Shown one piece after another: positions 6,184-50,961 of a DNA stretch of 64,000 nucleotides. The notes under the pieces are model-generated. The model ran no database searches. It was not told the origin of the DNA and worked only from the letters and a program-made list of their open reading frames with translations. This DNA comes from Candidatus Nitrosymbiomonas proteolyticus. Its GTDB lineage: Bacteria > Armatimonadota > Fimbriimonadia > Fimbriimonadales > Fimbriimonadaceae. The DNA is taken from the NCBI GenBank assembly GCA_017347465.1, contig AP021858.1, positions 1,256,472 to 1,320,471 of the forward strand, in the 5' to 3' direction. Each line of letters starts with the position of its first letter. Position 1 is the stretch's first letter. The position numbers and the translations under genes are program-made.

Positions 6184-7529
6184 TGCGCCTTGCTCAGTTC
6201 AAACCTTTCGTGCAGCGCTCGGACGGCGCGCTCGACGTCGACGTAGGGGATGAGGCAGCTCAGCGAGCGCTCGGAGTCGCTGGTTTGAAGTACGGCAACC
6301 TGCTGCTCGTGGAGAGTCGTGAGAACCTCGTGATAGACGCCGGGTTGTTGGAGATAATCCTGCCCGATCACCGAGACCATCGTGCAGTTCTCCGTGAGGT
6401 CGATGGAGAGGGTGCGAACGCCTCCAAGGGGTCGCAGTAGGTCGGCTTGCGTTTCGACTTCGCGCGAGGGCTTTTCGCCGAGTTGGCAAAGGTAGACCGG
6501 TTCGCTGCCCTCAATTGGGAGAACCAAGCCGTCGATCAGGTCCTTGGCGGTCGAGAACTCTTCGCGAGGCATGGCAAAGCCAAAACCGTGTCTGCTGTGG
6601 TTCATCATGTACACGTTGAGGTCGTACCGCGCCATCGTCTCGTAGATTCTCGATTCGAGCGGAACACGATGGGTTTCTTCCGCCGATTCCAGGTTGAATT
6701 GCAGGTAGGCCAACCGCCCGGAGTGCGTGACCCCAGTGACCCTTCTGCCGGGGAAGCTCTTGCGGTCGACCACTTCAGTGCCCGGATCGTCGCTGAAAGT
6801 GTTCTTCACCCAGAGCGGAATCCCGAACTTCATCGCGATCTCCGCGGCTCGCGGGTGAAGGACCTTGGCGCCGAGGTGCGCGATCTCAGCTACCTCGTCG
6901 TAAGTGACCTTGCGAAGGGTCGGCGCGTTCGGGACGTGGTCCGGGTCTGCGGTCTTGACTCCGTCCACATCGGTGTAGACTTCGACGCGCTCCGCGCCCA
7001 AAGCAGCGCCGAGAACCGCAGCCGTCGTGTCCGAGCCGCCCCTTCCCAATGTGGTGAGCTCGCCCCCAGGGTCGCCCTTGCGCGGAACGAAGGTGCCCTG
7101 AAATCCGCACACCACCGGGACGTTGCCTTTCTCCAGACTCTCGGAAAGGAGTAAGGGGTTGATGCTGACGATCCTCGCGTTCCCAAAAACGCCGTCCGTC
7201 CGGATTCCGGCTTGTCCGCCCCGGAAGGCTTGGGAGGGTTGCCCCATCGTCTTCAGGGTATGCGCGAACAGGGTCGCGGAGAGAATCTCCCCGCACGCGA
7301 TCATCAGGTCCACCTCTCGAGGGTCGGGCGCAACCGTCGGATCAACTTCTTGGAGCAGCCTTAGTAGCGTGTCCGTAGAGTACGGGCTCTCCTCGCGGCC
7401 GATCGCGCTGACTACGACCACGGGCTTATACCCCTGCTCCTTCGCGGAGAGCACGTGAGCCGCGGCTTTACGCCGGTTCTCAGGCGTCGAGACGCTCGTC
7501 CCGCCGAACTTGAGCACGACGATGCTCAT
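6180..7529 (-). CDS. lysC: aspartate kinase
   Basis: N-terminus MSIVVLKFGGTSV, GRGGSDTTA motif, C-terminal ACT-like region. 449 aa. Confidence 0.9.
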   Translation of the reverse strand: MSIVVLKFGGTSVSTPENRRKAAAHVLSAKEQGYKPVVVVSAIGREESPYSTDTLLRLLQEVDPTVAPDPREVDLMIACGEILSATLFAHTLKTMGQPSQAFRGGQAGIRTDGVFGNARIVSINPLLLSESLEKGNVPVVCGFQGTFVPRKGDPGGELTTLGRGGSDTTAAVLGAALGAERVEVYTDVDGVKTADPDHVPNAPTLRKVTYDEVAEIAHLGAKVLHPRAAEIAMKFGIPLWVKNTFSDDPGTEVVDRKSFPGRRVTGVTHSGRLAYLQFNLESAEETHRVPLESRIYETMARYDLNVYMMNHSRHGFGFAMPREEFSTAKDLIDGLVLPIEGSEPVYLCQLGEKPSREVETQADLLRPLGGVRTLSIDLTENCTMVSVIGQDYLQQPGVYHEVLTTLHEQQVAVLQTSDSERSLSCLIPYVDVERAVRALHERFELSKAQ

Positions 7530-10857: not shown

Positions 10858-11253
10858 CTACTCTCTCGCGGCGAACCCACGGCAATCGCACGTACTCGCG
10901 TTTCCCAAGCAACGGGCCGGCGCATGGACGGATTTCGGATGGCCGCAGATGCAAACGGGGTCGACTGGCCGCCCTTCGCCCCGATGAGCCAGGTCTTCGG
11001 GAATCACCATGACCTTGAGCTTCTTTACCGGAACCTCCTCATGCTGTTCCTGCGAGACGGTTTCGAACACCCAGTCGAGTTCCTCGACAACCCACCGGCT
11101 AGCTTCACCACAATGTAGCTCGACGACGTCGCCTTCGCGTGGCAACGGTAAGTCCCAGTGCGTCTCGATCAGCACTCGGTCCATGTTTCGGCTATCGACG
11201 AATTCGACTTCCAAGCTGCACCTCCCCAAGCGTGTTGCGGCCATTGGCCTCAC
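10858..11253 (-). CDS. hypothetical protein with Cys/His-rich C-terminus
   Basis: 131-aa ORF. C-terminal CICGHPKSVH...C...CDC suggests a small zinc-binding motif. No family recognised and the start is uncertain. Confidence 0.35.
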   Translation of the reverse strand: MRPMAATRLGRCSLEVEFVDSRNMDRVLIETHWDLPLPREGDVVELHCGEASRWVVEELDWVFETVSQEQHEEVPVKKLKVMVIPEDLAHRGEGRPVDPVCICGHPKSVHAPARCLGNASTCDCRGFAARE

Positions 11254-11329
11254 AGCCAGTACGAATGGCAGGGGGCACTCGTTCCAGGTTTCTGCCGCAA
11301 CTTGCGACTTGGGGAGGCGCTGACAGTGC

Positions 11330-12382: not shown

Positions 12383-13057
12383 ATGCCAAAGGTCGCCGTG
12401 GTTCTTTCGGGGTGCGGTTTCTTGGACGGCGCGGAAATCCAAGAGGCCGTCTTCACCTTGCTGTATCTCGACCGGGCTGGGGCCGAAGTTCAGTGTTTTG
12501 CCCCCGACAAGCCTCAAATGCATGTCGTAGACCATCGAGCAGGCCAGCCCACCGCCGAATCGAGGAACGTCTTGACCGAATCCGCGAGGATCGCGCGAGG
12601 GCAAATCGAGCCTCTCAGCAAGGCATCGATGTCCGGCTTCGATGCGCTCGCGATGCCAGGGGGTTACGGCGTCGCAAAGAACCTCTCGACGTTTGCGACG
12701 AAGGGCGCCGAAGGCGAAGTCGACCCCGACCTCGCTCGGCTGATCGGTGAGGCCTATCGCGCGCGGAAGCCGATCCTTGCGATCTGTATCAGCCCAGCGA
12801 TCCTCGCTTTGGCTCTGGCGAACGTTGGCGCAGGAGCGAATCTCACCATTGGCAGCGACGCGGGGACCGCTCAAGCCATCGAGTCGTTAGGCTGCACGCA
12901 CGAGGAGTGTGCCGTCGATTCGTTCGTCGCCGACGAGGATTCGCGCATCATCACCACGCCCGCCTACATGCTGGGACCGGGCCCAAAAGGGGTAGCCGCG
13001 GGGATTGAAAAGAGCGTCGAAACGCTAATGCGGTGGCTCCGCACGCCCGTAGCCTGA
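12383..13057 (+). CDS. elbB: isoprenoid biosynthesis glyoxalase ElbB (DJ-1/PfpI superfamily)
   Basis: Collinear with E. coli ElbB as I remember it: VAVVLSGCGFLDGAEIQEAV, CFAPDK, RNVLTESARIARG, PGGYGVAKNLS, TTPAYM. Confidence 0.8.
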   Translation: MPKVAVVLSGCGFLDGAEIQEAVFTLLYLDRAGAEVQCFAPDKPQMHVVDHRAGQPTAESRNVLTESARIARGQIEPLSKASMSGFDALAMPGGYGVAKNLSTFATKGAEGEVDPDLARLIGEAYRARKPILAICISPAILALALANVGAGANLTIGSDAGTAQAIESLGCTHEECAVDSFVADEDSRIITTPAYMLGPGPKGVAAGIEKSVETLMRWLRTPVA

Positions 13058-13094
13058 GACTGCGACGCGCGGCTCGCTGCGACGTATCGGTGGC

Positions 13095-13286
13095 ATGAGC
13101 GAATCGACCCACGCGCGGAAGCGGCGAAGCCCGGCTGGAGCGGGAATCTCGCTCTTTACGTCGATCGGCGTCTCCGTTGCCGTTCAGATTTCTTGGTCGA
13201 TCAACCAGTCGATCGGTTGGGCGATCTGGCACGGTTTCCTGAACTGGATTTGCGTGATCTACCGCTGGATTGTGGGCGTGAGCTGA
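13095..13286 (+). CDS. small putative membrane protein
   Basis: 63-aa ORF with two hydrophobic segments (ISLFTSIGVSVAVQISW and GWAIWHGFLNWICVIYRWIV). No other support. Confidence 0.3.
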   Translation: MSESTHARKRRSPAGAGISLFTSIGVSVAVQISWSINQSIGWAIWHGFLNWICVIYRWIVGVS

Positions 13287-13365
13287 GGGGGGATGGGGTA
13301 GGGTAGAGGACCCGGCCCTGGAAGTTCGGGTACCTTTCAGCAGGTTCTCCTTGAGAGATCGCCGC

Positions 13366-13441
13366 GGCCTCGTAGCTCAGTGGATAGAGCGCCTCCGTCC
13401 TAAGGAGGGCGTCGGGGGTTCGAGTCCCTCCGAGGCCGCCA
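13366..13441 (+). tRNA. tRNA-Arg(CCT)
   Basis: Hand-folded cloverleaf. Acceptor GGCCTCG/CGAGGCC, anticodon stem CCTCC/GGAGG with loop GTCCTAA, T-loop TTCGAGT, encoded CCA. Confidence 0.9.
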
Positions 13442-14166
13442 ATGCCCGAATTGTCCCTACCGGACACATGGATTTTCGTCGTCATTCGCAGGAAGTCGCG
13501 CAGTTGCTCGAAGAACTGTTCCTCGCTCTTCTGCGCCGTCACAGGCGTCCTACGGCGAGATGGCAAGAGTGGCACTGTGTCCGGCCGCCCCACCGTGAAG
13601 CCCACGGGTGGAACCGCCAATCGTCCCGTCTGGCGGTTCACGACCACATAGCGCATCACCTCCTTCGCGGAATCGCGCCAGTTCCGCAACGCCAGTTCCG
13701 CGAGCTCGGTGACGCTGTGGATCGTGTACTGGCGAAGGTCTACTCCGTGCCCTTGTCGGTATTCCGTATCGACGGCCAGCCCGAATAGCGTAATCGGAAC
13801 ACCGCTGAGTCTACGAGATCGAGCATCCACATCCCGTCGAGGAGAAGCTGTTGTACCATCTTGTGATCGCTTGGCGACAGGTCGCACTCCCGTACCCCTG
13901 GGAAGTAGTGGTCGAGAAACGCCTGCACTGATGTCGCGTTCGGGTAGTGGTTGGTACTCATCGTCCGGTGTAAGAACCTCCCTCCCGATCATCACGTCCG
14001 GGTGGTTGATGATCGACGACTGGGACGTGGCTCCGAGCAATTCCAGTTTACGCAACATGATGCCGAGAGCCCGCATCACGCCTGCTTCACTTCTGTTAAC
14101 GAAGACTGTGGCTTTGGGTTGCGATAAAGATCGTTCCGGAGACAGAGCTGTCCTTCGTTTTCCCAA
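13442..14166 (-). pseudogene. decayed gene remnant (unknown family) abutting the tRNA-Arg 3' end
   Basis: Protein-like translation switches frame twice. It runs frame A 14166 to about 13960, then the 73-aa ORF 13740-13961, then frame A again. There is no stop before the reading frame runs into the tRNA gene. Confidence 0.35.
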
Positions 14167-14288
14167 CCCTCCCTGAAAAACGGCACGACCTTTCGCCTGT
14201 CCGAGCCTCGCCGTCGAGCCACCCTGTCGCCGTCCGAGAGGGCCTGCTTTGAAGCAGCGCTCGCCCGGCTGTCCGAATCACCAATGCG

Positions 14289-15275
14289 CTAGCCGTCCAG
14301 CGGGCTTCGGACGTTCATACCCGGGCGGTTCATGACGTGGGTGTACACCATAGTCGTCCGCACGTCCTTGTGGCCCAGCAGTTCCTGAACGGTTCGGATG
14401 TCGTAGCCATGTTCCAGCAAGTGCGTCGCAAAGGAGTGTCGAAGGGTGTGACAACTGACTGGCTTGTCGATGGCAGCCGCATGTGCCGCCTTCTTGACCG
14501 CACGCTGAAGACGGTCTTCGTGAACGTGGTGGCGACGCACGGTTGAAGTACGGGGGTCGGTCGAAAGGGACTCGGCTGGGAACAACCAATGCCAGGGCCA
14601 CTCCTTCCCGGCGTTGGGGTACTTCCTTTCGAGCGCGCCCGGAAGGGCGACCCCGGGGCGATCGAGCTTACGGTCCAACTCGAACAGCAGCCTGCTTCGT
14701 CCGAGTTGAACCTTCAGGGCCGGGATGATCTTCACCGGGATCATCGTCGTCCGATCCTTCCCGCCCTTACCCTCGCGAACGCTGAGGGTTCGTTTCTCGA
14801 TCGCCAGGTCCTTGACGCGCAGGTCGAGGCACTCGGCGAGCCGCAAGCCCGCCCCGTAAAGCAACGAGGCCATGAGGTAGGTCTCGCCGGACATGTTTTC
14901 GAGGAGACGCTGCACCTCGTCTTGGGTGAGGACGCAGGGGATACGCTTGCATCGCTGAGCGCGCACGATTCCAGCAGCCTGGGGCATTGCGACGCCCAGC
15001 ACGTTGCGGTACATGTAGACGAGGGCGTTCAGGGCGACGTTTTGCGTGGAGGCGGCCACCGAGCGGTCCACCGCTAGGTGCGTGAGGTAGGCGCTGATGT
15101 CTTCGCCGGTCAAGTTTGAGGGGTGTTTGCGCCCATGAAACTCGATGAACTCCCGCATCCGGTGCAAGTACGCCCTCTCTGTCTTGAGGCTGAGGTGGCG
15201 CTTGCGCAAGTGGTCTCGCGCCGCGTTGAGGAACTCGGTGACGGTCCGCGGCTCGCCTGACGTCGAGTTTACCAT
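14289..15275 (-). CDS. intI: integron integrase IntI
   Basis: Carries the IntI-specific insertion ALERKYPNAGKEWPWHWLFPA. Also has KTERAYLHRMREFIEFHGRKHP, HTLRHSFATHLLEHGYDIRTVQELLGH, TTMVYTHV and C-terminal VRSPLDG. Start at MVNSTSGE, with CATAAT 6 nt upstream. Confidence 0.9.
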   Translation of the reverse strand: MVNSTSGEPRTVTEFLNAARDHLRKRHLSLKTERAYLHRMREFIEFHGRKHPSNLTGEDISAYLTHLAVDRSVAASTQNVALNALVYMYRNVLGVAMPQAAGIVRAQRCKRIPCVLTQDEVQRLLENMSGETYLMASLLYGAGLRLAECLDLRVKDLAIEKRTLSVREGKGGKDRTTMIPVKIIPALKVQLGRSRLLFELDRKLDRPGVALPGALERKYPNAGKEWPWHWLFPAESLSTDPRTSTVRRHHVHEDRLQRAVKKAAHAAAIDKPVSCHTLRHSFATHLLEHGYDIRTVQELLGHKDVRTTMVYTHVMNRPGMNVRSPLDG

Positions 15276-15393
15276 GAGCACATTATGCGCCGTTCTGCCG
15301 GATAACACAACGCTTTCGCGCACGTATCTTGCGCAAGTGCACTTTGATATCGGAAGGCCGCGCACATTTCAGTAATCTGCAGGAGAATCAGTA

Positions 15394-15400
15394 GTTAGAC
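15394..15400 (+). other. attI recombination core (GTTAGAC)
   Basis: Matches GTTRRRY between intI and the first cassette. It is the exact reverse complement of the R'' box (GTCTAAC) of the first attC, as expected for a cassette inserted at attI. Confidence 0.6.
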
Positions 15401-15402
15401 CG

Positions 15403-15816
15403 ATGGAAGGAACCCAATCGGAGAACAGGAAGATGCACTGGCTCGGGTGGATTGTTCTTGCTCTCGCTTTCATCGAGGGCGGATGGCTGGCCTTCGACGG
15501 GGGTCGCGCACTTGTCGTGGGCGACTACGTCACTCCAACGTCCGGCCAGTATGCCGGCCAACTTGGTCCGTGGGCGAAGGTCGTGTCGGCGGTCGGAATC
15601 GAACCACGGTCGACGCTGATGAAGTCGATTCACCTTGGCCTTGGGGTGGCTTGGCTCGTGGTCATGATCTGCTTCGCGCTACGTTTGCCGTGGGCTTGGG
15701 CGGGAATGGTGGCCTGTGCGGCGCTCGGTCTGTGGTACCTTCCGTTCGGCACGCTTCTGAGCATCGTCCAGGTTGTCCTGCTCCTCATGCCCGCGTTGCG
15801 TGGTTCGAGTAGTTGA
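15403..15816 (+). CDS. cassette 1: small integral membrane protein (4 TM), unknown function
   Basis: 137-aa ORF that fills the first cassette. Alternative start MHWLGW at 15433 with AGGAAG immediately upstream. Confidence 0.6.
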   Translation: MEGTQSENRKMHWLGWIVLALAFIEGGWLAFDGGRALVVGDYVTPTSGQYAGQLGPWAKVVSAVGIEPRSTLMKSIHLGLGVAWLVVMICFALRLPWAWAGMVACAALGLWYLPFGTLLSIVQVVLLLMPALRGSSS

Positions 15817-15839
15817 CGTGATGAGTTACCTCAACGACG

Positions 15840-15899
15840 GTCTAACAACAGCATGCAGCGGACGGCGCTGCGCGCCGCCGCTGATGCTGAGCGTTTGCC
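15840..15899 (+). other. attC site of cassette 1
   Basis: R'' is GTCTAAC. Arms are CAGCAT(G)CAGCGG(A)CGGCG and CGCCG CCGCTG ATGCTG, with two unpaired bases on one arm. R' is GTTTGCC. 60 bp, starting 23 nt after the ORF stop. Confidence 0.65.
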
Positions 15900-15905
15900 C
15901 AAGAT

Positions 15906-16481
15906 ATGAACATCACTTTGTCGCGACAGCAAGTTGAAGAAGCGCATCGGTTGGCATGCCAGTCTATCGCTCGGTGGGCAGACGTTCCAGGCCATTACAA
16001 CAATCGCCTTCGCTCACACCTGGTCGGAAGGATCGGAGAGATTGCCGCCGCTACTTGGTTGCAAGACGCAGAATTGAGGCTGACCCGTCACTACTTTGAT
16101 CCAAAAGCCGAACGACTGTGTGACATCAGCGTAAATCAAGCGGATGGCGGCGTAGTACGCATAGAGGTCAAGACCTGGACCGCCCAATACTGGCCAGACC
16201 TGGGGCGTTGTATAGCCATTGACCAATATAATGCGCTGTGCCAGAAGTGCGATCTCGTGGTTTGGTGTGTGCTCGCAAACCCAATTCCTGTTATTGAGGC
16301 GACAGAATACGATACATTCACAGTTGATACAGGACGATGGTCAACGCTTGAAGACATCAAGACTGCGCCTCAACGGTGGACCGGCAGAGGTTCGATGCGG
16401 AAGGTTCACAACTACCAGGTGGACGAAACGACACTTCGTGGGAGCGACAGCCTACTGACACTACTGAAAGGCCCAGGATGA
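15906..16481 (+). CDS. cassette 2 gene 1: PD-(D/E)XK nuclease-like protein
   Basis: 191 aa. VGRIGEIAAATWL helix followed by D...RIEVK, matching a D-x(n)-E-x-K arrangement. Paralogous pattern to the gene at 17359. Stop overlaps the methyltransferase start (ATGA). Confidence 0.55.
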   Translation: MNITLSRQQVEEAHRLACQSIARWADVPGHYNNRLRSHLVGRIGEIAAATWLQDAELRLTRHYFDPKAERLCDISVNQADGGVVRIEVKTWTAQYWPDLGRCIAIDQYNALCQKCDLVVWCVLANPIPVIEATEYDTFTVDTGRWSTLEDIKTAPQRWTGRGSMRKVHNYQVDETTLRGSDSLLTLLKGPG

Positions 16482-17362
16482 GCAATCTGCGCATATACTT
16501 CGGAGACAATCTATCGGTCCTGCAGTGTCTCCCTGCCGACTCGGTGGACTTGATCTACATTGATCCGCCCTTCAACACCGGCAAAGTGCAGAGCCGGACG
16601 CGCCTGTCCACCGTCCGAGACGAGAACGGCGACCGGACGGGATTTCAGGGCAAGCGTTATCGAACGATCAAACTGGCGACGAAAGAATACGAGGACATCT
16701 TTGACGACTACCTTGCCTTCCTGGATCCACGATTGGAGGAAGCGCGGCGAGTGTTGAAAGGCAACGGAAGCCTCTTCTTCCACATTGATTACCGGGAGGT
16801 CCACTATGCGAAAGTCCTACTGGATACGATTTTCGGACGGGACTCTTTCCTGAATGAGATTATTTGGGCCTACGATTACGGCGCGCGGTCGAAGACGAAA
16901 TGGCCTGCGAAGCACGACAACATCCTCTGGTATGCCAAGAACCCGGACGACTACCAGTTCCACCATGAGGAATGCGATCGCATCCCGTACATGGCACCCG
17001 GTCTGGTGGGAGCGGAGAAGGCCGCCATGGGAAAGACGCCAACGGACACCTGGTGGCATACGATTGTCAGTCCGAACGGACACGAGAAGACCGGCTATCC
17101 CACGCAGAAGCCGAGAGGCATCTTGGATCGGATTGTCAAGGTGCACTCCCGGTCCGGCGACCTGCTTCTGGACTTTTTTGCCGGAAGCGGCTCGTTCGGC
17201 GAGGCTGCGGTTGAGCTAGGCCGCCATTGCTTCCTCGTGGACAATAACCCGGAGGCGTTGCGCGTCATGGAGAAGCGTTTCGCAGAAATCAACGTGGAAT
17301 GGATAAATTGGACACCCGAGGCGCAGCACGACCAGCCCGTGCAAAGGAGACTGTTCGCATGA
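16478..17362 (+). CDS. cassette 2 gene 2: site-specific DNA methyltransferase (beta-class N4/N6, PF01555-like)
   Basis: Motif IV IDPPFNTG is N-terminal and motif I LLDFFAGSGSFGEAA is C-terminal (circular permutation beta). TGYPTQKP motif present. 294 aa. Confidence 0.9.
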   Translation: MSNLRIYFGDNLSVLQCLPADSVDLIYIDPPFNTGKVQSRTRLSTVRDENGDRTGFQGKRYRTIKLATKEYEDIFDDYLAFLDPRLEEARRVLKGNGSLFFHIDYREVHYAKVLLDTIFGRDSFLNEIIWAYDYGARSKTKWPAKHDNILWYAKNPDDYQFHHEECDRIPYMAPGLVGAEKAAMGKTPTDTWWHTIVSPNGHEKTGYPTQKPRGILDRIVKVHSRSGDLLLDFFAGSGSFGEAAVELGRHCFLVDNNPEALRVMEKRFAEINVEWINWTPEAQHDQPVQRRLFA

Positions 17363-18099
17363 CGATCAAAGACCCGGAAGTCAGGATTCTCGCTGGTATC
17401 AGCCAAGCATTGGAGGCGGAGTACCAGAGCGAGAATCGAGAGTGGGAGGGCAGCCCTTTTGCGTGGATCAAGACGAAGCCATCCCGCCAAGTCGGTGCCA
17501 TCGGCGAGAAACTTGTTGCTGGGTGGCTGGCGGCTCGCGGCTTCAACGTGGTTCGGGCTGGCGACTCCGACGCCGACCGGGTGGTCGAGAACAAGCGCGT
17601 CGAGATCAAGTTCAGCACTCTGTGGGCCAACGGTGGGTACAAGTTCCAACAACTCCGCGACCAGCGCTACGACCTTGCCATCTGTCTTGGCGTATCGCCC
17701 TTCGATTCCCACTGCTGGGTGATCCCGAAGGATGACGTGATTCGCCTCTGGCGGGTGGAGCATCGCATATCGAGTCAACATGGTGGGCAGGACGGCGCGG
17801 ATACCGCATGGATTGACGTTCGTGTTGATGATCCCCCGATTGGCTTAAACCGTATGGTGGGTCTTTGTCGGACGCGATCTTCGCGCTGTCCAAGATCACA
17901 GGTTTCGAGATCAAGAAAGTCCGGGAAGAACTCGAAGAATATGAGGCCTAACGACGGCGTGGAACACTACGCCGGTTCCGCCGCGCTCCTCCGGCGAGGT
18001 TCACGCCGGACGTTGCCCGTCCGCTGCCTTTTCGATCTCAGCAAAAGCGACATGTTCAGAGCGTCCGGCTTGTCCTTGCGCTGCCGGGCGGTATTGTGA
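17359..18099 (+). CDS. cassette 2 gene 3: PD-(D/E)XK restriction-endonuclease-like protein, C-terminus probably frameshifted
   Basis: VGAIGEKLVAGWL then DADRVVENKRVEIK. Start overlaps the methyltransferase stop. After the C5 run (17833-17837) the translation becomes Arg/Ser-rich junk. The other frame reads WLKPYGGSLSDAIFALSKITGFEIKKVREELEEYEA and stops at 17949-17951. Confidence 0.6.
   Translation: MTIKDPEVRILAGISQALEAEYQSENREWEGSPFAWIKTKPSRQVGAIGEKLVAGWLAARGFNVVRAGDSDADRVVENKRVEIKFSTLWANGGYKFQQLRDQRYDLAICLGVSPFDSHCWVIPKDDVIRLWRVEHRISSQHGGQDGADTAWIDVRVDDPPIGLNRMVGLCRTRSSRCPRSQVSRSRKSGKNSKNMRPNDGVEHYAGSAALLRRGSRRTLPVRCLFDLSKSDMFRASGLSLRCRAVL
17946..18018 (+). other. attC site of cassette 2
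   Basis: R'' is GCCTAAC. Arms are GACGGCGTGGAAC and GTTCACGCCGGAC, with bulges, plus an inner CGCCGG/CCGGCG stem. R' is GTTGCCC. 73 bp. Confidence 0.55.
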
Positions 18100-18297
18100 A
18101 GCCTTCCGGTGCTTCACCCTTGGGATATCTTCCACTCGATCAGGGCCAGGAGGAATCTGTTGTGGGTTTTGTCTCTAGACATGGCGCTCCTACGGGGCTA
18201 GAGAAACCGCGGCGAGGGCGCAGATTCCACTGACGGCTGACAAGGTCAGGAATGGCCGCGCGTTCTTGAATGCAGATGTGGCCTTCGAGTCGGAGGC

Positions 18298-18519
18298 GGG
18301 CACCCGGCACTCGGAAAGAATCCCTCACCCCCTGGCCCCCTCTCCCTCGGACGGGCGAGGGGGAGGTTCCTTCATTGTCCTGGTCGGCTCTGCGAGTCAG
18401 ACCGGGGCACCCGGCACCCGGAGTCCCTCACCCCCTGGCCCCCTCTCCCTCGGACGGGCGAGGGGGGATTTCCTTCATTGTCCCGGTCGGCTCTACGAGG
18501 CAGGCCGGGGCACCCGCGG
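18298..18519. repeat. tandem repeat, about 105-bp unit, 2.1 copies
   Basis: Units run 18298-18404, 18405-18507 and a partial third from 18508. Each contains the CCCTCG-GACGGG-CGAGGG hairpin and the GGGCACCCGGCAC motif. The overlapping ORFs look spurious. Confidence 0.8.
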
Positions 18520-18688
18520 TTCGTCTTCCCGGAGCGTTCGGTGCTCGATCGAAGCGAGATGCCTCGAGCGCGCTTCTTGGCGGAGACCCACACGCTCACT
18601 TCCGGTTTGATTCTGGGGACTCGGCAGTAATGCCTTATGGAGAACAACGTAGAGTTCGATGTGGCCAGCCCCCATTGTTGAAGACATC

Positions 18689-19519
18689 TTAAGAGTAGAC
18701 CTCCGCTGATGATATCCCAGCAGGGTTGGGGGGCAGGCAGGGCGTAGCCCGACTGAACTCCAGACTCTGCGCGGCCACCGCCGGGGGGCGATAGCCAAGC
18801 GACGAATGCGGCCGAACCTCGTTGTAGTAGCGACGGTAGATCGCCGTCTTCATCTGAGCGTCGGCCAGATTGACAAAGACCTCGACGTCGAGGTGATCCC
18901 GGCGCAGGGTCGAGTGGAACGACTCCACGAACCCGTTCTGCCAGGGTTTGCCCGGATCGATGAAGCGGCTGTTCGAACCGGATTCAGAGAGAAACACCGC
19001 GAGCAGCCGGGCAACGAACTCGCCGCCGTTGTCGCTCCGAACGAACCGGGGAGCCCCGCGATCGGCAAAGAGCGGAGCCAATACGTCGCGCACCTTGCGA
19101 GCATTGATCCGCGTCGCCACCTCCAGAGCCAGGCACTCCCGAGTGAACTCATCCTCCACCGAAAGCACCTTCAGCTTCGTTCCGCTCAGGCAGGAATCAT
19201 GGATAAAGTCCACCGTCCACACGTGGTTGGGATGCTCCGCCGACAGGGGAACCGGGTTCCCGGTCCGCTTCTTGCGATATCGCTTCTTGCGGCCGAGCCG
19301 CTCGTCCTTCCAGATTCGATGCACCCGCTTGAGGTTCAAGGGAGCGAACTCCTCCTTCACCAGGGCGTGCGCCATCCGGTAGCCCATGTTGGGCCGCCAG
19401 ACCCTCCTGAGTGCTTCCCTGAGCGCAGCGTCCCGGTCCGGCCCTGGCTCCTCATAAACAGCGCGAGTCGAGATCCCGGTCATCCAGCAAGCCCTGCGGA
19501 CCGTCATGTTCCGCTCCAT
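18689..19519 (-). CDS. IS3-family transposase OrfB (rve/DDE integrase core)
   Basis: HVWTVDFIHD, SDNGGEF and later conserved E and PHSSLGYRPP motifs. Expressed as an OrfAB fusion by -1 frameshift. Confidence 0.85.
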   Translation of the reverse strand: MERNMTVRRACWMTGISTRAVYEEPGPDRDAALREALRRVWRPNMGYRMAHALVKEEFAPLNLKRVHRIWKDERLGRKKRYRKKRTGNPVPLSAEHPNHVWTVDFIHDSCLSGTKLKVLSVEDEFTRECLALEVATRINARKVRDVLAPLFADRGAPRFVRSDNGGEFVARLLAVFLSESGSNSRFIDPGKPWQNGFVESFHSTLRRDHLDVEVFVNLADAQMKTAIYRRYYNEVRPHSSLGYRPPAVAAQSLEFSRATPCLPPNPAGISSAEVYS

Positions 19520-19824
19520 CAGGAATCGCGCCCCCGCGACGGGTTCGGGAGCGCGAGTCCGTTTTTTCGGAACAGCGCCCGTACCGCGTCGATCTCAAGG
19601 TCTCTTTCGGCAAGAAGACGCTTGAGCTGAGCGTTCTCCCGCTCGAGCTCGCGCAGATGCCGCACATCGTCTGTCTGCATCCCCGCGTACTTGCGCTTCC
19701 ACACGTAGAACGTGTTCGCGCTGACTCCGTGGTCGCGGCAAAGCTGGGCCTGCGTCTTCTGGCCCGATGCGGCCTCCTGCAGAATCCTCACGATCTGCTC
19801 CTCGGTGAACTTCGATCTCTTCAT
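19519..19824 (-). CDS. IS3-family transposase OrfA (HTH)
   Basis: MKRSKFTEEQIVRILQEA...TFYVWKRKY followed by a leucine-zipper-like ENAQLKRLLAE. Slippery AAAAAAC (plus-strand 19561-19567) near the 3' end. Confidence 0.85.
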   Translation of the reverse strand: MKRSKFTEEQIVRILQEAASGQKTQAQLCRDHGVSANTFYVWKRKYAGMQTDDVRHLRELERENAQLKRLLAERDLEIDAVRALFRKNGLALPNPSRGRDS

Positions 19825-19889
19825 GATTGCCTCCAGTTTGAACCAGAGGACTACTTTTTTGACGTCTTCAATTTTGGGGGGCAGACCAG

Positions 19890-20147
19890 ATGCACGTAAA
19901 GATCGAAGACTGGGAGAATGGTTGGTCCGGAATCAGCGTCGGTCTCGACCCCGACGAGATCGATCACTTCATCGAGCTTCTGAAAATGATCAAAGACGAC
20001 CCCGATCAACATTTCCATATCTGCAGCGACTACGAAGGAACCGGAGGCGTTGGAGATATCGAAATCTCAATTAGAAGCGAGAGCGAGGAACACAATATGG
20101 ATTTCTCGGGTCCCGCCTTGGCGCCTGGGGAAAGCATCGACATTTGA
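19890..20147 (+). CDS. small acidic hypothetical protein
   Basis: 85-aa ORF. Its ATG lies inside the right-hand copy of the IS target duplication. Highly acidic, no family recognised with confidence. Confidence 0.45.
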   Translation: MHVKIEDWENGWSGISVGLDPDEIDHFIELLKMIKDDPDQHFHICSDYEGTGGVGDIEISIRSESEEHNMDFSGPALAPGESIDI

Positions 20148-20286
20148 GGCATAACACGTCGCTCATGCTGGCGCCCGGGGCAGCGTTTCGAGGCATTGCG
20201 CGAAGGCATCTTTCATTCCTTGCGCCGAAGGACCCGGAACGCGCCCCTCGACCGCAAAACTCAGCCAACCCGACTATAATGCCTAC

Positions 20287-21372
20287 GTGCTGAGGACGAA
20301 AGTCGAAACCGACCCTCGATGGGCGGATCGAACCGAGCAGCCTTGGAAGGAGCTTCAATCGAAGGCCCTATCCGCCACGCCGTTCCAAACCTGGGAGTGG
20401 CAATCCACGTGGTTCCGTCACTTCCATGGAAGGCAGCACCCCCATGTTTGGACCGCTTACGAGGGCGACGACCTCGTGGCCCTGATGCCTTTCGTGCTTA
20501 CTCGCGCGCCTTGGCGAGTCCTCAAGCCGATGGGCGCCGGATGCTCCGACTATCTCGAACCGCTGGTCCGGCCCGGATATGAGAATCAGGCGAACCAGGC
20601 GCTCGTCGAGTACGTCAGCGACCCTGCCACCGCCGACCTGATCGACCTGCATCAACTGAGAGAGGGCTGTCCGTTGGTCTCCGACCTTCCGTCCGGCGGC
20701 GATCGCCCCAGCTTATTGGCCCCGCAGGCGACCTGCCTCAAACTCAATCTCCCTCCGACTTTCGAGGCGTACGCGCGCGGTCTGAGCAAGAGTCTGCGGT
20801 ATGACGTCAAGCGACTGGAGCGGATGGCCGAAGGGCGAGTCGAGGTCGTTTTGGCGGACCCACAGAGCGCGGAAGCGATGTTCCTTGAGTTCCTTTCGCA
20901 CCATCAGGCGAGATGGAAGCGGCGGGGACTTCCGGGCGCGTTCGTCGGCAAGCGCAGAAAGAGTTTTCATCGGGAATGGGTCGTCCGCGCGGCCGAGGCA
21001 GGGATGCTGCGGTTGGCGGGATTGCGGGTGGACGGAAACCCCGCGGGCGCTCTTTATGCGATGGTTTGGGGGAAATCCTGTTATTTTTACCAGTCCGGTT
21101 TCAGTCCTGAGTTCAAATCGCTGTCGCCTGGGACCCTACTCGTCGCGGACGCGATTCGGCGCTCGATCGACGAGGGGCTCGAGGCTTTCGACTTCTTGAG
21201 GGGTGACGAGCCCTATAAGAGAAGGTGGAAACCTCAGAACGTCGAAAAGAACTTGCGCTACCTTTCGGCAGCCCCGACCCTACCGGGCCGCCTGGCGCTT
21301 GCAGCGAGCGGGACCGGGTTCAAACTCGAAGGCCGACTTCGAGCGCGGTTCGAGGGTCGCGGGCTCGTCTGA
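20287..21372 (+). CDS. GNAT-type acetyltransferase (CelD/BcsL, FemAB-like)
   Basis: C-terminal YFYQSGF...SPGTLL...FDFLRGDEPYKRRW signature. GTG start with TATAAT 6 nt upstream. Confidence 0.7.
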   Translation: MLRTKVETDPRWADRTEQPWKELQSKALSATPFQTWEWQSTWFRHFHGRQHPHVWTAYEGDDLVALMPFVLTRAPWRVLKPMGAGCSDYLEPLVRPGYENQANQALVEYVSDPATADLIDLHQLREGCPLVSDLPSGGDRPSLLAPQATCLKLNLPPTFEAYARGLSKSLRYDVKRLERMAEGRVEVVLADPQSAEAMFLEFLSHHQARWKRRGLPGAFVGKRRKSFHREWVVRAAEAGMLRLAGLRVDGNPAGALYAMVWGKSCYFYQSGFSPEFKSLSPGTLLVADAIRRSIDEGLEAFDFLRGDEPYKRRWKPQNVEKNLRYLSAAPTLPGRLALAASGTGFKLEGRLRARFEGRGLV

Positions 21373-21431
21373 GTGGGTCTTTCGGGGCACTTGCGGCAAC
21401 GCGGTGCTGTCTTGTAAGGTTAGAACGTTCG

Positions 21432-22166
21432 ATGGTCGCAGTCATCATTCCGGCTTTCAATGAAGGGGCTCGCATTCGAGCCGTGTTGGAAGCCGTCCGC
21501 GGCTCGTCGCTTCCCGATGAGATTATCGTTGTGAACGACGCGAGCACGGACAACACGTCTGCGGTTGCGAAGTCGATCGAAGGGGTTCGAGTGATCGAAC
21601 TGCCCCGCAACGCGGGAAAGGGCGGGGCGATGGCGGCTGGCGTCGAGGCCACTCAGGCTGACGTGCTGCTGTTTATCGACGCCGATTTGCAGGGCGTCCG
21701 GCCGGAGCATATCGACGCGATTCTCAAACCCGTGCTCAACCGGCGTTGCGAAATGTGCATCGGCGTGTTTCGAGGAGGCAAGTTCTGGAGCACCAGCGCC
21801 CATCGCGTCGCGCCCTACATCAGCGGCCAGCGGGCGATGAGACGCTCGCTGTTTCTCTCGATTCCCCACATCGGCGAGCTTCGCATGGGGATCGAGGTCG
21901 CGCTCAACGCGGCCGCCAAACGCTCCAACTCCCGTGTGGCACGAGTTGTGCTAAGGGGAGTCAGTAACACGCACAAAGAGCGGAAGATGGGAATCGTGCG
22001 AGGCGCTGCCGCTAGGGCCAAGATGTGGGCTGAAATCGGCAGAGCCGTCGTGCGGGTCCGCCGAAAAAAAAAACGCGCGGTGGCGTCGGACGTAACATGC
22101 TCACAGCGATCTTGGTCGGTCTTTCGATCGGGTGCGCTTCGAACCCGAAGTCGCCCGCGGCGATAG
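21432..22166 (+). CDS. family 2 glycosyltransferase
   Basis: MVAVIIPAFNE, VVNDASTDNT and FIDADL (DxD) motifs. The 3' end crosses an A10 run and overlaps the next gene by 70 nt. Confidence 0.8.
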   Translation: MVAVIIPAFNEGARIRAVLEAVRGSSLPDEIIVVNDASTDNTSAVAKSIEGVRVIELPRNAGKGGAMAAGVEATQADVLLFIDADLQGVRPEHIDAILKPVLNRRCEMCIGVFRGGKFWSTSAHRVAPYISGQRAMRRSLFLSIPHIGELRMGIEVALNAAAKRSNSRVARVVLRGVSNTHKERKMGIVRGAAARAKMWAEIGRAVVRVRRKKKRAVASDVTCSQRSWSVFRSGALRTRSRPRR

Positions 22167-23260
22167 CGGAACTCGGCGTCAGCCTGCAAGAGGCACCTGC
22201 CGAGTCGAAGCGCGTCCTCGTCGTCATCAACAAGAAGAGCGACGAGAGCCGGCTCATCGGCGAGTACTACATTTACCGCCGCAAGATCCCCCAGAGCAAT
22301 GTCCTCCTTCTCGACCTGCCGGTTACCGACAACATCGAATGGAACCCGTACCTGGATCTCCTTGAATCAAGGGTGAAAAAGAAGATCGAGGGGCTCTCCC
22401 ACCGGATCGATTTCATCGTTCTGTGCAAGGGCGTGCCGATCCGCCTGAGGAGCGATGGGGGCTATTCGGTCGACGGCCACTTGGCTGCGATGAACCTTGC
22501 CTTTGAGCCGATCGCCAAGCCCGAACCCGAGCAGATCAAGCGGTGCCTCAACCCGTACTTCAACAAAGCGGAGCCGTTCTCCAGCGCAAAATACGGTTTC
22601 TATCTCGTCACGCGGCTCGACGGGTACACGGTCGATCACGTCAAGCGCCTCATCGATCAATCGGTCAACGGGCGCCCGAATCAGGGACCTTTCCTGCTCG
22701 ACCAAGACCCCACGAAGACCGAGGGCGGCTACAAAATGATGCACGACTCCCTCGTTCGGGCAGCGAAGGTCCTGCAGCAGAAGGGTTTTGAGGTCAATTC
22801 AGACGAGACCCCCGTGTTTGTGGGGAGTAGCTGGCCCGTTGCGGGCTATGCGAGTTGGGGGAGCAACGACAAGAAGTTCAACGCGGACGTCTATCGCGGC
22901 CTGAGGTTCTTGCCCGGAGCGATCGCCGAGACGTTCGTTTCGACCAGCGCCCGGACGTTTCAAGTCGTTTCGAGCGGCCAAAGCGTGATCTCGGACCTAG
23001 TCGCGGGCGGCGTGACGGGGGTCAAGGGGTACGTCAGCGAACCCTACACGTTCGCGCTGGCCTACCCGGACGTCCTCTTTGACCGCTACACGGGCGGGTT
23101 CAATCTTGCCGAGAGCTTTTACATGGCTTCGATGGTGCTGAAATGGAAAGACATCGTGGTCGGCGACCCGCTCTGCAGCCCGTATTCAAAGAAGTCCTCG
23201 GGCGCTAGCTCTCTCGGCGAAGGAGAACCAAAAGAAAGGGAGCCCCTAGGAGCGCGGTGA
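22097..23260 (+). CDS. conserved hypothetical lipoprotein (possibly TIGR03790 family)
   Basis: Lipobox-like LSIGCAS. 387 aa. The family guess is from memory of the pattern and is unverified. Confidence 0.55.
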   Translation: MLTAILVGLSIGCASNPKSPAAIAELGVSLQEAPAESKRVLVVINKKSDESRLIGEYYIYRRKIPQSNVLLLDLPVTDNIEWNPYLDLLESRVKKKIEGLSHRIDFIVLCKGVPIRLRSDGGYSVDGHLAAMNLAFEPIAKPEPEQIKRCLNPYFNKAEPFSSAKYGFYLVTRLDGYTVDHVKRLIDQSVNGRPNQGPFLLDQDPTKTEGGYKMMHDSLVRAAKVLQQKGFEVNSDETPVFVGSSWPVAGYASWGSNDKKFNADVYRGLRFLPGAIAETFVSTSARTFQVVSSGQSVISDLVAGGVTGVKGYVSEPYTFALAYPDVLFDRYTGGFNLAESFYMASMVLKWKDIVVGDPLCSPYSKKSSGASSLGEGEPKEREPLGAR

Positions 23261-24242
23261 CGACTCCGACCGGTACTTCGCCTCCCGGCAGGCCCCATTG
23301 AGCCACCACATCGGCGCAGAGTAATAGGGACATCCCGATCAGGGCCGATCCGGCTAGCGAGCGCCGCCAGTCCACGCCCACCACTCGACGGGCGATGTGG
23401 GGAGCGACGAGCCCCAAAAAACCGATGATCCCGACGGATCCCACGCAAACCGCCGTCATCGCCGTGCCCGTGACCAAGACGGTTGGCTTGAGCTTGCGAG
23501 TATCGACTCCGAGGCGCTGGGCCGTGTGTTCACCAAGAGAAAGCGCGTTCAGACTTTTCGATTGAAGGAGCAAGAGCGCGCCTCCAACCAGAAGCGCAAC
23601 GGCCATAGCGTAGATCTTCGGCCAGTACATCGGGGTCGCCGATCCGAGCAGCCACCGGAGCACCTGATTGGCGTCGAGCCCGCCCGCCATCAACAGCAGC
23701 GCGAGCACCGCCGATAGCATCGCGCCGACCACCACCCCTGAGAGGAGGAGCGTCTGTACGTCCACCGCTCCTTTGCTGGTCGCGAGGGAAAACACGAGAC
23801 CGAGCGAGAGCATCCCGCAGACGAAGGAGGCCGCCAACAGCCCCAAGCCCGCCGCCACGCCCGCAAAGCCCAAAAGGATCGCAAGCGCGCCGCCCACCGC
23901 CGACCCCGATGACACCCCCACGATGAACGGGTCAGCAAGAGGGTTGCGGAAGAGCGATTGAAACGCCGAGCCCACCACCCCCAACAAGCCTCCGGCCAAC
24001 AAACACCCGAGCGCGCGCGGCAGCCGGATGAGCCAGATGATGTCGTTGCCGGTCGTGGTGTCGGGCATCCGGCCCCGAAATAGCTCCGAAACCACCTCCC
24101 ACGGCGTCAGGCGAAGTCCGAGTCCTCCCGAGGAACTGCCGAGGCCCAGGTGCAATACGAAAGCGACACCTACGAGCGCGAGAAGCAACACGAGCGTGCC
24201 GAAAAGGCTGGGGGATCGGTCCGTAGCTCGAAGCGCCACCAC
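23205..24242 (-). CDS. FecCD-family iron/siderophore/cobalamin ABC transporter permease
   Basis: 345 aa, about 9-10 TM helices. Typical RLPRALGCLLAGGLLGVVGSAFQSLFRNPLADP motif. Confidence 0.85.
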   Translation of the reverse strand: MVALRATDRSPSLFGTLVLLLALVGVAFVLHLGLGSSSGGLGLRLTPWEVVSELFRGRMPDTTTGNDIIWLIRLPRALGCLLAGGLLGVVGSAFQSLFRNPLADPFIVGVSSGSAVGGALAILLGFAGVAAGLGLLAASFVCGMLSLGLVFSLATSKGAVDVQTLLLSGVVVGAMLSAVLALLLMAGGLDANQVLRWLLGSATPMYWPKIYAMAVALLVGGALLLLQSKSLNALSLGEHTAQRLGVDTRKLKPTVLVTGTAMTAVCVGSVGIIGFLGLVAPHIARRVVGVDWRRSLAGSALIGMSLLLCADVVAQWGLPGGEVPVGVVTALLGAPFLLVLLRRES

Positions 24243-24275
24243 AGGGGGGATTATAGCCCTCGGTATACTCAGCGG

Positions 24276-25469
24276 GTGAAGTCGGTGAACCTATCGAGCC
24301 GAGCTTCCCAGATTGCGCCTTCACCGACTCTGGCGGTGGCTGCGCGGGCCCGCGAACTCAAAGCCCAAGGGATCGACGTGATCAGTCTGGCCGCTGGGGA
24401 ACCGGATTTTGCCACGCCTGCCCCTGTCTGTGAGGCGGCGATCGCGGCGCTCAAGTCCGGGTACACGAAGTACACCCCAACCGCTGGCATCGGCGAACTC
24501 CGGGCGGCGATCGCGGAAAAGCTCCAACGCGACAACGGCGTGCCCTCTTCGCCGGGCCAAGTCGTGGTCTCGTGCGGGGCGAAACAAGCGGTCTTCGGCG
24601 CCCTGTTCTCGCTCCTCGACCCCGGGGACGAGGTGATCCTCTTTGCTCCCTACTGGCCGACGTACACCGAGCAGATTCGGCTTGCGGGCGGGATTCCGAG
24701 GGTAGTTCGGTGCTCCAGCGAAGCGGGGTTTCTGCCCGACTTCGAAGCGGTATCCGAAGCGGTCAATGCCCGAACGAAAGCAATCCTGCTCAATTCGCCC
24801 TGCAACCCGACCGGCGCCGTCTTTCCTCGGCAGACCCTCGAACGAATCGCGCTCCTTTCAGAGCAGCACGGCCTTTGGATCATCTCGGACGAGATCTATG
24901 AGAAGCTCTACTTCGGCGAGCGGCCGCTAAGCCCGGCGTCGTTGGGTGAGCAGGTCGCTGGGCGGACCGTCACCATCGGCGGGTGCAGCAAGTCGTATTC
25001 GATGACGGGATGGAGGATCGGATACTCTTCGAGCCCGCCCGCGGTCGCCCAAGCGATATGCGCTTTGCAGGATCAGGTGAACGGCAACGCGACGAGCTTC
25101 GCGCAGTACGGCGCGTTGGCGGCCCTGAGCCTCCCCGAGAACGAAGTCGCCCGAATGCGCGAGGAGTTCCGCGTGAGGAGAGATCTCGCCCTCCTCGAAG
25201 TAGCCTCGATCGACGGGATGTCGTGTCATCCTCCGAGCGGGGCTTTCTACCTCTTGATCGATGTGCGGAGCCTTCTCACGCCTCGATTCGATTCTGACGT
25301 AGCGTTCTGCGAGTGGTTGATCGAGGAGGCTCGGGTGGCCACCGTACCGGGCTCGGCCTTCGACGCCCCCGGGTTCTTGCGACTGAGCTTCGCCACGAGC
25401 CGCGAAGAACTCACTGAGGCCTTCGCCAGAATCCGCGACGCCGTAGAATCGCTCAAGGTCCCTCAATGA
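24276..25469 (+). CDS. pyridoxal-phosphate-dependent aminotransferase (aspartate aminotransferase class I)
   Basis: GEPDF, NSPCNPTG, and SKSYSMTGWRIGY containing the PLP lysine. GTG start chosen because TATACT lies 6 nt upstream. The longer ORF overlaps the permease gene. Confidence 0.85.
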   Translation: MKSVNLSSRASQIAPSPTLAVAARARELKAQGIDVISLAAGEPDFATPAPVCEAAIAALKSGYTKYTPTAGIGELRAAIAEKLQRDNGVPSSPGQVVVSCGAKQAVFGALFSLLDPGDEVILFAPYWPTYTEQIRLAGGIPRVVRCSSEAGFLPDFEAVSEAVNARTKAILLNSPCNPTGAVFPRQTLERIALLSEQHGLWIISDEIYEKLYFGERPLSPASLGEQVAGRTVTIGGCSKSYSMTGWRIGYSSSPPAVAQAICALQDQVNGNATSFAQYGALAALSLPENEVARMREEFRVRRDLALLEVASIDGMSCHPPSGAFYLLIDVRSLLTPRFDSDVAFCEWLIEEARVATVPGSAFDAPGFLRLSFATSREELTEAFARIRDAVESLKVPQ

Positions 25470-50610: not shown

Positions 50611-50961
50611 GAGGGGTTGCTTGAGCGAGAAACTGGTCCCGCAACCGCAACTTCGTTCGGCGTTGGGGTTGTCGAAGACGAAGCCGTTGCCGATCAGGTT
50701 GCCGGAGAACCGCAGAACCGAACCTTGAAGCACCTTGGCAGAGCGGGGATCGCAGACGATCTCGAGGTCGCCCTCCTTCTGCACGAGGTCGTCGGCCCGG
50801 CGTCGGTCGTCGGGAAAAATCACGTATTCGAGGCCCGAGCAGCCTCCGCCCTTGACGCCGACCCGCAAGAACGCGTCAGGGTTTCCCGCTCGTGCCAACA
50901 AGCGATGCGCTTGCGCGATCGCTTCGGGGGTCAGCGTTACGGGAAACCCTACTTCGTTCAT
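50602..50961 (-). CDS. HesB/IscA-family iron-sulfur cluster insertion protein
   Basis: GGGCSGLEY and C-terminal CGCGTSF motifs. 119 aa. Confidence 0.85.
   Translation of the reverse strand: MNEVGFPVTLTPEAIAQAHRLLARAGNPDAFLRVGVKGGGCSGLEYVIFPDDRRRADDLVQKEGDLEIVCDPRSAKVLQGSVLRFSGNLIGNGFVFDNPNAERSCGCGTSFSLKQPLSE

Follow-up and report, generated by a model that had tools for sequence, protein, structure and literature searches.

A two-cassette locus, very probably a small sedentary chromosomal integron, in the Candidatus Nitrosymbiomonas proteolyticus lineage

Introduction

The genome of Candidatus Nitrosymbiomonas proteolyticus (Armatimonadota, Fimbriimonadaceae) carries, within the 64,000-nucleotide (nt) stretch analyzed here (contig AP021858.1, positions 1,256,472 to 1,320,471; hereafter the window), a locus that is very probably a complete, small, sedentary chromosomal integron of this lineage. 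All three parts that define an integron are present, namely an integrase of the IntI type, an attI crossover site, and cassettes that are bounded by attC sites and point away from intI. With intI and two attC sites, the locus has more than the single attC that IntegronFinder requires beside intI for a complete integron. Established in the following are the family of the integrase, how both attC sites are built and where and on which strand they lie, the exact limits of the cassettes and the replacement of cassettes at attI among relatives, and comparison of the sequences indicates that cassette turnover is active in the lineage. A complete chromosomal integron next to a tRNA-Arg gene had been proposed for this locus from the letters of the sequence alone (the original prediction). 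The proposal stands, since IntI, attI and attC-bounded cassettes were found, and relatives share the platform up to the G|TT of attI and then differ. The parts of the integron are as follows, with lengths in base pairs (bp) or amino acids (aa).

14289-15275, minus strand: intI, integron integrase, 328 aa (330 aa from a GTG two codons upstream, as in BBO23553.1)
15330-15400, plus strand: attI region, with the core GTTAGAC at 15394-15400 and the crossover between G15394 and T15395
15395-15893, plus strand: cassette 1, 499 bp, with one open reading frame (ORF) for a small hydrophobic membrane protein
15433-15816, plus strand: the cassette 1 ORF (127 aa, from a Met with GGAG upstream), or alternatively 15403-15816 (137 aa), both from the ORF list
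15840-15899, plus strand: attC1, 60 nt, R'' GTCTAAC and R' GTTTGCC, crossover after G15893
15894-18012, plus strand: cassette 2, 2119 bp, three overlapping genes forming a type II restriction-modification module
17946-18018, plus strand: attC2, 73 nt, R'' GCCTAAC and R' GTTGCCC, crossover after G18012

If the established integron mechanism is applied to this locus, the minus-strand intI would provide the tyrosine recombinase, the substrates of which would be the attC hairpin of a cassette, folded from the bottom strand, and double-stranded attI with its crossover at G15394|T15395. Circular cassettes that arrive would be inserted directly 3' of attI and oriented away from intI, and resident cassettes would be excisable through attC x attC or attI x attC exchange.

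The Integrase

The IntI of the window corresponds to BBO23553.1 with the start placed two codons downstream. It reaches 436.2 bits with the NCBIfam model for integron integrases (TIGR02249, cut-off 265), but only 144-147 bits with the XerC and XerD models, the cut-offs of which lie at ~330, and it stays under the cut-off of the IntI1-type equivalog NF011946 (360 bits, cut-off 435). The best match among solved structures is VchIntIA of Vibrio (PDB 2A3V, E = 3e-90), and the alignment runs in one gap-free stretch over residues 14-326, thereby spanning the IntI-specific insertion, whereas the structures of XerA, XerC and XerD align to IntI in two pieces and skip this insertion (residues ~192-246). 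Residues R145, K170, H276, R279, H302 and Y311 align with R135, K160, H267, R270, H293 and Y302 of 2A3V, the catalytic residues of the VchIntIA structure. Residues 214-234 read ALERKYPNAGKEWPWHWLFPA and the C-terminal end is VRSPLDG, so that ORF, motif and alignment to 2A3V agree with the predicted 328-aa tyrosine recombinase bearing the IntI insertion and ending in VRSPLDG. A XerC/D-like recombinase that lacks the IntI patch, which would have spoken against an integron, is not what was found, since the Xer scores are low and the patch is aligned to 2A3V. With the XerC/XerD dimer resolvases the protein shares the tyrosine recombinase fold, an N-terminal SAM-like domain and the catalytic residues, but these resolvases do not have the ~50-residue insertion that reads the extrahelical bases. 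Cluster mates of IntI (at least 90% identity) are found among Fimbriimonadaceae and Armatimonadota metagenome-assembled genomes (MAGs) and are named “integron integrase” by NCBI.

The attI Site and Its First Cassettes in Relatives

The attI core GTTAGAC is on the strand opposite to intI, 118 nt upstream of its ATG. A GTTAGAC about 120 bp upstream on the divergent strand had been predicted, and the motif and its distance are right, while its coordinates have to be shifted from 15395-15401 to 15394-15400. The exact reverse complement of this core is the R'' box of attC1 (GTCTAAC).

The position of the crossover follows from related contigs. Those with IntI variants share the left flank, in the order DJ-1/PfpI gene, tRNA-Arg and intI, an arrangement common to all relatives, with 88-95% nucleotide identity. 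In 11 related loci the homology to the window extends from the left flank through intI and ends at 15396-15401; each has ...GGAGAAT(C/T)AGTAG|TT, next to it bases of the RRRY type and after these unrelated cassette sequence. The continuations after the conserved AGTAG are TTAGAC, TTAGGC (two cassettes), TTATGC, TTGGGC and TTAGAT (two cassettes), and at least six first cassettes besides that of the window follow attI in these relatives. As the shared platform ends at attI and is succeeded by differing cassettes, a conserved core-genome gene order, which had been named as a finding that would contradict the original prediction, is not what these loci show. With the covariance model described below (R1), the relatives hold 1-4 attC sites, and all matches lie on the cassette strand between called genes.

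The cargo of the related arrays (L085 5328-9849, L090 1838-2836, L091 292-4243 and L095 43-375) includes DUF1801 proteins, DUF488 pairs and a Kelch-repeat protein. One cassette holds a 614-aa N6 methyltransferase together with a specificity subunit, and the first cassette of L095 encodes a transporter of the SMR family. A PemK toxin and its partner lie beyond the last attC detected by the model.

The attC Sites

An attC site has been described as an imperfect hairpin of 57-141 nt whose terminal loop is variable and whose two to three extrahelical bases are confined to one arm; its R'' reads RYYYAAC and its R' GTT..., and the R box is cleaved at AAC (PMC11641012). Both R'' boxes of the window, GTCTAAC and GCCTAAC, fit RYYYAAC. 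For the first site the original prediction holds throughout: a 60-bp palindrome starts 23 nt after the first ORF with GTCTAAC, ends with GTTTGCC and has two unpaired bases on one arm, which are G16 and A23 on the 5' arm of the top strand. Counted from the first R'' base, the single-base bulges are at positions 16 and 23 in attC1 and at 17, 21 and 24 in attC2, in both cases on the R'' arm only. The three-bulge layout of attC2 resembles the sites of contig L008, and the bulge positions recur in attC-like sites beside IntI homologues in MAGs of Burkholderiales, Chloroflexota and Tepidisphaeraceae. The predicted 73-bp structure (GCCTAAC...GTTGCCC) is likewise a site; the “next gene block” that it was said to close is a single three-gene cassette whose last gene, as assembled, reads through attC2.

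Rfam contains no attC family, and an E-value search of 13000-26000 returned the tRNA only; the palindromes were therefore assessed by folding, by a hairpin scan and by their geometry. Folding of the bottom strands, which had been proposed as a check together with the original prediction, gave -24.7 kcal/mol for attC1 (z = -4.9) and -23.8 kcal/mol for attC2 (z = -2.9), each compared with dinucleotide-preserving shuffles. In the scan, all stretches of 50-150 nt bounded by AAC...GTT were taken from the two strands of the window (2404 candidates); when overlapping and opposite-strand variants of one site are counted once, attC1 and attC2 rank first and second among the distinct sites in energy per nucleotide. 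At other loci a scan by energy alone misses degenerate or AT-rich sites, such as both sites of contig L001, and for this reason a covariance model was adopted. RNAalifold on a MAFFT alignment of the sites yielded 13 pairs only; since it was limited by one-base shifts of the bulges between sites, the structure of the model was written by hand. The resulting model R1 was built from 18 attC-like sites of seven unrelated loci beside IntI homologues and serves as a proxy for the attC model of IntegronFinder. The window, its closest relative L001 and one foreign site resembling attC1 were left out of its training.

A failure of an attC covariance model had been named as a ground for doubt, and R1 scores both sites. 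With filters off it finds attC1 at 15840-15899 with 38.7 bits (E = 3.3e-7) and attC2 at 17946-18017 with 36.9 bits (E = 9e-7), both at full length and on the plus strand, while on both strands of the 64 kb no third site falls below E = 1 and the next match has 11.8 bits. On 860 kb of loci with IntI homologues R1 returned 49 matches, all except one of them on the strand opposite to intI (48/49), and 31 of the 49 are not training sequences. In an alignment of 54 R1 matches, which was fitted to the R1 model, so that the pairing counts lean towards the structure, 82% of the cells are paired, as compared with 61% after shuffling and 30-39% after sliding of the pairing partner. Of the 22 pairs, 19 show compensatory changes, and the AAC/GTT triplet hardly varies.

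The two sites differ from each other, as had been noticed in the sequence, where this was taken to suggest independent acquisitions rather than a homogeneous superintegron array. The difference is real, but a lineage-typical type does exist, since other cassettes in L091, L092, L094 and L096 end in sites that are 90-93% identical to attC1. The restriction-modification cassette carries attC2 along with it. Just behind the two attC sites in the energy ranking stands a 97-nt hairpin at 50866-50962 with a 12-bp outer stem of the GGGTTTCCCG type (-28.7 kcal/mol), to which the attC model gives no score.

The Cassettes and Their Boundaries

The hydrophobic protein encoded by cassette 1 has no family match in Pfam, NCBIfam or PADLOC. 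The cassette begins with TTAGACCG, which is exactly complementary to the R'' region of the attC that closes it (CGGTCTAAC; CGGTCTAA), and circularized cassette 1 would thus have a perfect 9-bp R box. Its boundaries look intact. If the cassette were excised, attI (...AGTAG) would be joined to TTTGCCCAAG, and if it circularizes, the junction would connect ...GCTGAGCG to TTAGACCG.

Cassette 2 comprises the following genes.

15906-16481, plus strand: gene 1, 191 aa, PD-(D/E)XK-like, with a D...E-x-K motif
16478-17362, plus strand: gene 2, N4/N6 DNA methyltransferase
17359-17951, plus strand: gene 3, restriction endonuclease, frameshifted at the C5 run 17833-17837

PADLOC assigns the methyltransferase to MTase_II (E = 1e-139) and the frame-repaired endonuclease to REase_II (E = 1e-54), and Pfam N6_N4_Mtase matches the former with E = 3e-42. 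With a methyltransferase and an endonuclease on separate chains, the module has the predicted make-up of a type II system. The 191-aa protein has only seven homologues in a collection of 5.8 billion proteins, and in each of the four contigs examined (L070, L071, L072 and L079), where the three genes occur together, its gene precedes that of the same methyltransferase.

Judged by these sequences, the module is a cassette in two other integrons. In L070 it is preceded by another attC, which scores 41 bits, and the similarity to the window sets in at 15897, inside the R' of attC1. The cassette of L070 starts with TTAGGC, the exact complement of the R'' of window attC2 (GCCTAAC), and as L070 keeps this sequence, the TTTGCC of the window is an eroded boundary of cassette 2; the lost base may make recombination at attC1 less efficient. 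The module occupies the first cassette position in L071, next to an IntI of 53% identity that bears the IntI patch, and its attC there is truncated after the loop. The three genes of L072 stand in AT-rich, non-integron surroundings.

The methyltransferase is intact in the window. Owing to a one-base frameshift, the endonuclease ORF of the assembly runs through attC2 as far as 18099. If the C5 run at 17833-17837 is extended by one C, the frame yields a 197-aa protein that can be aligned over its whole length with the intact proteins of L071 and L072 and stops at a TAA inside R'', which is thus part of the GCCTAAC of attC2. The metagenome contig L079, otherwise identical over 2.4 kb, has C6 in place of C5 and an intact endonuclease of 197 aa. 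The shortened run may represent a nuclease-dead strain variant or a homopolymer error of the assembly. A protein search of a plasmid collection gave no match for the endonuclease.

Short-read metagenome contigs from several runs (L067, L068 and L079) break in the hairpin loop of attC1 (window 15865-15873). Such attC1-internal ends of IntI-identical Logan contigs were considered as signs of cassette variability, an interpretation that was rejected because the adjoining contig L079 carries the same array. Since this contig of the same sample starts 3 nt earlier, the breaks are an effect of the hairpin on the assembler.

Loss of the Integron in Conspecific Strains

Two conspecific assemblies (L073 and L081/L075) have flanks that are 98-100% identical to those of the window, and they contain neither 14258-18011 nor the IS3-family element described below. 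In these integron-free alleles (L073 8490-8575 and L081 11850-11935, equivalent to 14232-18012 of the window) the intI-downstream sequence is of the type seen in the relative L085, followed by 15 nt, GGTATGTCTCTAGCT, ending in ...CTAGCT, and then by GTTGCCC. The base at which homology sets in again is exactly G18012, where attC2 has its crossover. The right flank at 18012-18280 is only ~75-82% identical between the alleles, as compared with 98-100% for the outer flanks.

The integron is present at this place in all the relatives, which are 88-95% identical, and the L085-type sequence remains; on these grounds the comparison favors an origin of the integron-free alleles by deletion. The 15-nt filler is probably the 3' end of another terminal attC left behind by a plain deletion; a Smith-Waterman comparison of the filler region with the window was not significant. 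Insertion of the whole integron by an attC x attG reaction was considered, as homology resumes at the G of GTTGCCC (attG core GWT), and was rejected in favor of deletion.

A Related Integron at Another Locus

In L001, a contig from a more distant Fimbriimonadaceae MAG, an IntI of 83.5% identity is located between ychF and an alcohol-dehydrogenase-like gene, and the YchF of this host is only 58.7% identical to that of the window. The stretch over which the two platforms are similar is bounded by the attI crossover and by the intI stop codon. The 3.6-kb integron of L001 is flanked by 255-nt direct repeats of the target region (7152-7406 and 11010-11264), which are 94% identical. That the intI-attI platform moves as a compact unit, without a transposon, between distant Fimbriimonadaceae lineages is a doubtful interpretation of this arrangement, which may instead be an artefact of low-coverage assembly, the evidence being a single contig of 4x coverage. 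If true, it would point to an undescribed relocation of a whole integron, for example by Campbell-type insertion of a circular intermediate.

In L001 (9870-9885 and 8415-8428) the attI core is GCTAGCA, as compared with GTTAGAC in the window, and the AAC of R'' is changed to ATC in the first attC. As both partners of the most conserved triplet are mutated, the first cassette of L001 is suggested to be fixed. It holds two genes, the first of which is TIR-like by eye, and the following single-gene cassette is GIY-YIG nuclease-like by eye.

Neighboring Features

Two further features adjoin the integron.

13366-13441, plus strand: tRNA-Arg(CCT), found by ARAGORN and scoring 60.8 bits with the Rfam tRNA model, 847 nt from the intI stop codon
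18662-19888, minus strand: IS3-family insertion sequence, with orfA at 19519-19824 and orfB at 18689-19519, TGG...CCA ends and a 4-bp duplication, GATG

The adjacency to tRNA-Arg noted in the original prediction is thus real and is kept in relatives, where the tRNA-containing flank is 94-95% identical and intI lies at the same place. The tRNA gene is a conserved left-hand neighbor and not part of the integron machinery. Repeats of its 3' end or of the flanks that might mark an island were sought, and the matches, of up to 13 nt, are at chance level. A 650-bp segment between tRNA-Arg and the intI-downstream flank (13475-14124), with a 73-aa ORF on the minus strand (13740-13961), is present in L091-L096 and not in L085-L090. 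The IS3-family element, 640 nt downstream of the integron at the start codon of an 85-aa ORF (19890-20147), is absent from every related contig examined.

Just 3' of the array, at 18283-18516, are two tandem copies of a ~103-nt repeat with the internal palindrome CCCTCTCCCTCGGACGGGCGAGGGGG; the repeat has no Rfam match and occurs in at least five copies in the conspecific contig L073 (8880-9470). The YchF and GNAT proteins of the window are identical to BBO23575.1 and BBO23561.1 of Candidatus N. proteolyticus.

Alternative Explanations

Several observations weigh against a working integron in this strain. The evidence for recombination comes, as read from the sequences, from relatives and not from the strain of the window itself. 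The R' boxes of the array, GTTTGCC and GTTGCCC, fit GTTRRRY in the GTT only, and R1 marks two non-standard pairs in the R box of each attC. The outer bulged base is a C on the bottom strand, where attC sites of the aadA type have a G; C is the commonest state among the environmental sites collected here. The start of cassette 2 is one base shorter than in L070 (TTAGGCCC there, TTTGCCC in the window). In addition, a consensus scan of 14900-16000 revealed neither a sigma-70-type promoter nor a terminator, although the consensus may not fit Armatimonadota. No such promoter was found between intI and cassette 1, and a promoter in the intI-attI region that would drive the cassettes is only inferred.

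The locus could be an integron by descent that has become a fossil in this strain, with a frozen array, a silent or inactive IntI and decaying cassette boundaries. The shortened 5' end of cassette 2 and the missing promoter-like site would suit this idea, as would the degenerate R' of attC1, the frameshift in the endonuclease gene, the deletion of the whole element in conspecific strains and the decay displayed by the distant relative L001 in its attI core and first attC. However, the intI ORF is intact and has kept all catalytic positions, and the perfect 9-bp R box of cassette 1 is what would be expected of a well-preserved or recently inserted cassette. The frameshift concerns a single C in a homopolymer and is not found in an otherwise identical metagenome contig, so that it may be a strain variant or an assembly error. 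Since close relatives, with IntI at least 90% identical, hold six different first cassettes, the integron of this lineage appears to have been active recently. A fossil state is considered unlikely, and IntI is presumably active in the strain of the window today.

A mobile integron, brought to tRNA-Arg on a genomic island or a transposon, is a far less probable origin than a resident chromosomal element. The tRNA gene next to the locus, an array as small as those of mobile integrons (two cassettes), an IS3-family element 640 nt downstream, the varying presence of the unit among conspecific assemblies and the 83.5%-identical IntI at another locus in L001, a host with a YchF of only 58.7% identity, could all be taken to indicate mobility. 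Yet a direct repeat of the tRNA 3' end was not found, the unit is without transposase, tni or Tn7-type genes, and the IS3 copy is a strain-specific insertion with its own 4-bp duplication that occurs in none of the relatives. The same locus is occupied in every relative (88-95% identity), and the integron-free alleles keep the L085-type intI-downstream sequence, which identifies them as deletions rather than as empty target sites. Furthermore, IntI stays under the cut-off of the class-1 equivalog (360 versus 435 bits).

That there is no integron at all, and that a XerC/D-like recombinase stands by chance beside terminators or palindromes of the repetitive extragenic (REP) type, is refuted by the comparative data and has next to no probability. 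The genome is GC-rich, other strong hairpins exist in the window, such as that at 50866-50962, and a family of palindromic 103-nt repeats follows just downstream. Nevertheless, the remaining hairpins obtain no score from the attC model, while the two sites show attC-like bulge positions, strand and R-box triplets, and the cassette boundaries fall at G|TT in comparisons with at least six other loci. The recombinase itself is far under the XerC/XerD cut-offs and far above that of the integron-integrase model.

Comparison With Known Integrons

The sedentary chromosomal integrons of Vibrio cholerae, with VchIntIA, and of Xanthomonas are the closest counterparts among known systems. In common with them, the present integron occupies a lineage-conserved chromosomal locus, its intI diverges from a co-oriented array, its cassettes vary between close relatives while a lineage-typical type of attC recurs, its IntI aligns end to end with VchIntIA, and cassettes of toxin-antitoxin or defense type occur in relatives (PemK; methyltransferase with S subunit). 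It differs in its tiny arrays (two attC sites, and 1-4 in relatives), in its host phylum, Armatimonadota, and in that some conspecific strains have lost the whole element. Large sedentary integrons are defined by more than 10 attC sites (formerly 19) that are highly similar (PMC9024848), and by its size the array described here is not such a “superintegron.”

Class 1 mobile integrons resemble it in the small array, the architecture of the integrase and an attI core of the GTTRRRY type. The layout of attC1 (60 nt, bulges at 16 and 23) is that of the aadA1 attC when folded, while its outer bulged base is complementary to that of aadA1. Unlike class 1 integrons, the locus has no Tn402 tni module, 3' conserved segment, plasmid or resistance cassette, and it belongs to none of the mobile classes 1-5.

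Type II restriction systems have been described as common in integron cassettes (preprint 10.1101/2024.07.02.601686). Cassette 2 agrees with the defense and restriction-modification cassettes reported there and in a second preprint (10.1101/2024.07.02.601719) in being a compact type II system within a single attC-bounded cassette. It deviates from them in having three genes, the additional one encoding the 191-aa PD-(D/E)XK-like protein, and in that the module also occurs outside integrons (L072).

Significance

A literature search found no paper that links integrons with Armatimonadota, Armatimonadetes or Nitrosymbiomonas, and Armatimonadota is not among the integron-bearing phyla in the integron surveys that were compared (including PMC9024848). 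The kind of system is well known, and the element is new as a well-documented integron in an under-studied phylum; since public annotation already names the integrase, the novelty is limited to a new documented case. It adds a well-delimited Armatimonadota integron to the known set and backs the emerging view that cassettes often carry defense genes, while leaving the knowledge of the integron mechanism unchanged. The locus amounts to a natural experiment, in which one species group shows a single attI followed by at least six different first cassettes, has a restriction-modification cassette in common with two other integrons and includes strains from which the whole element has been deleted. 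It is thereby a convenient case for the study of cassette turnover in small environmental integrons, for example in the communities of anammox reactors.

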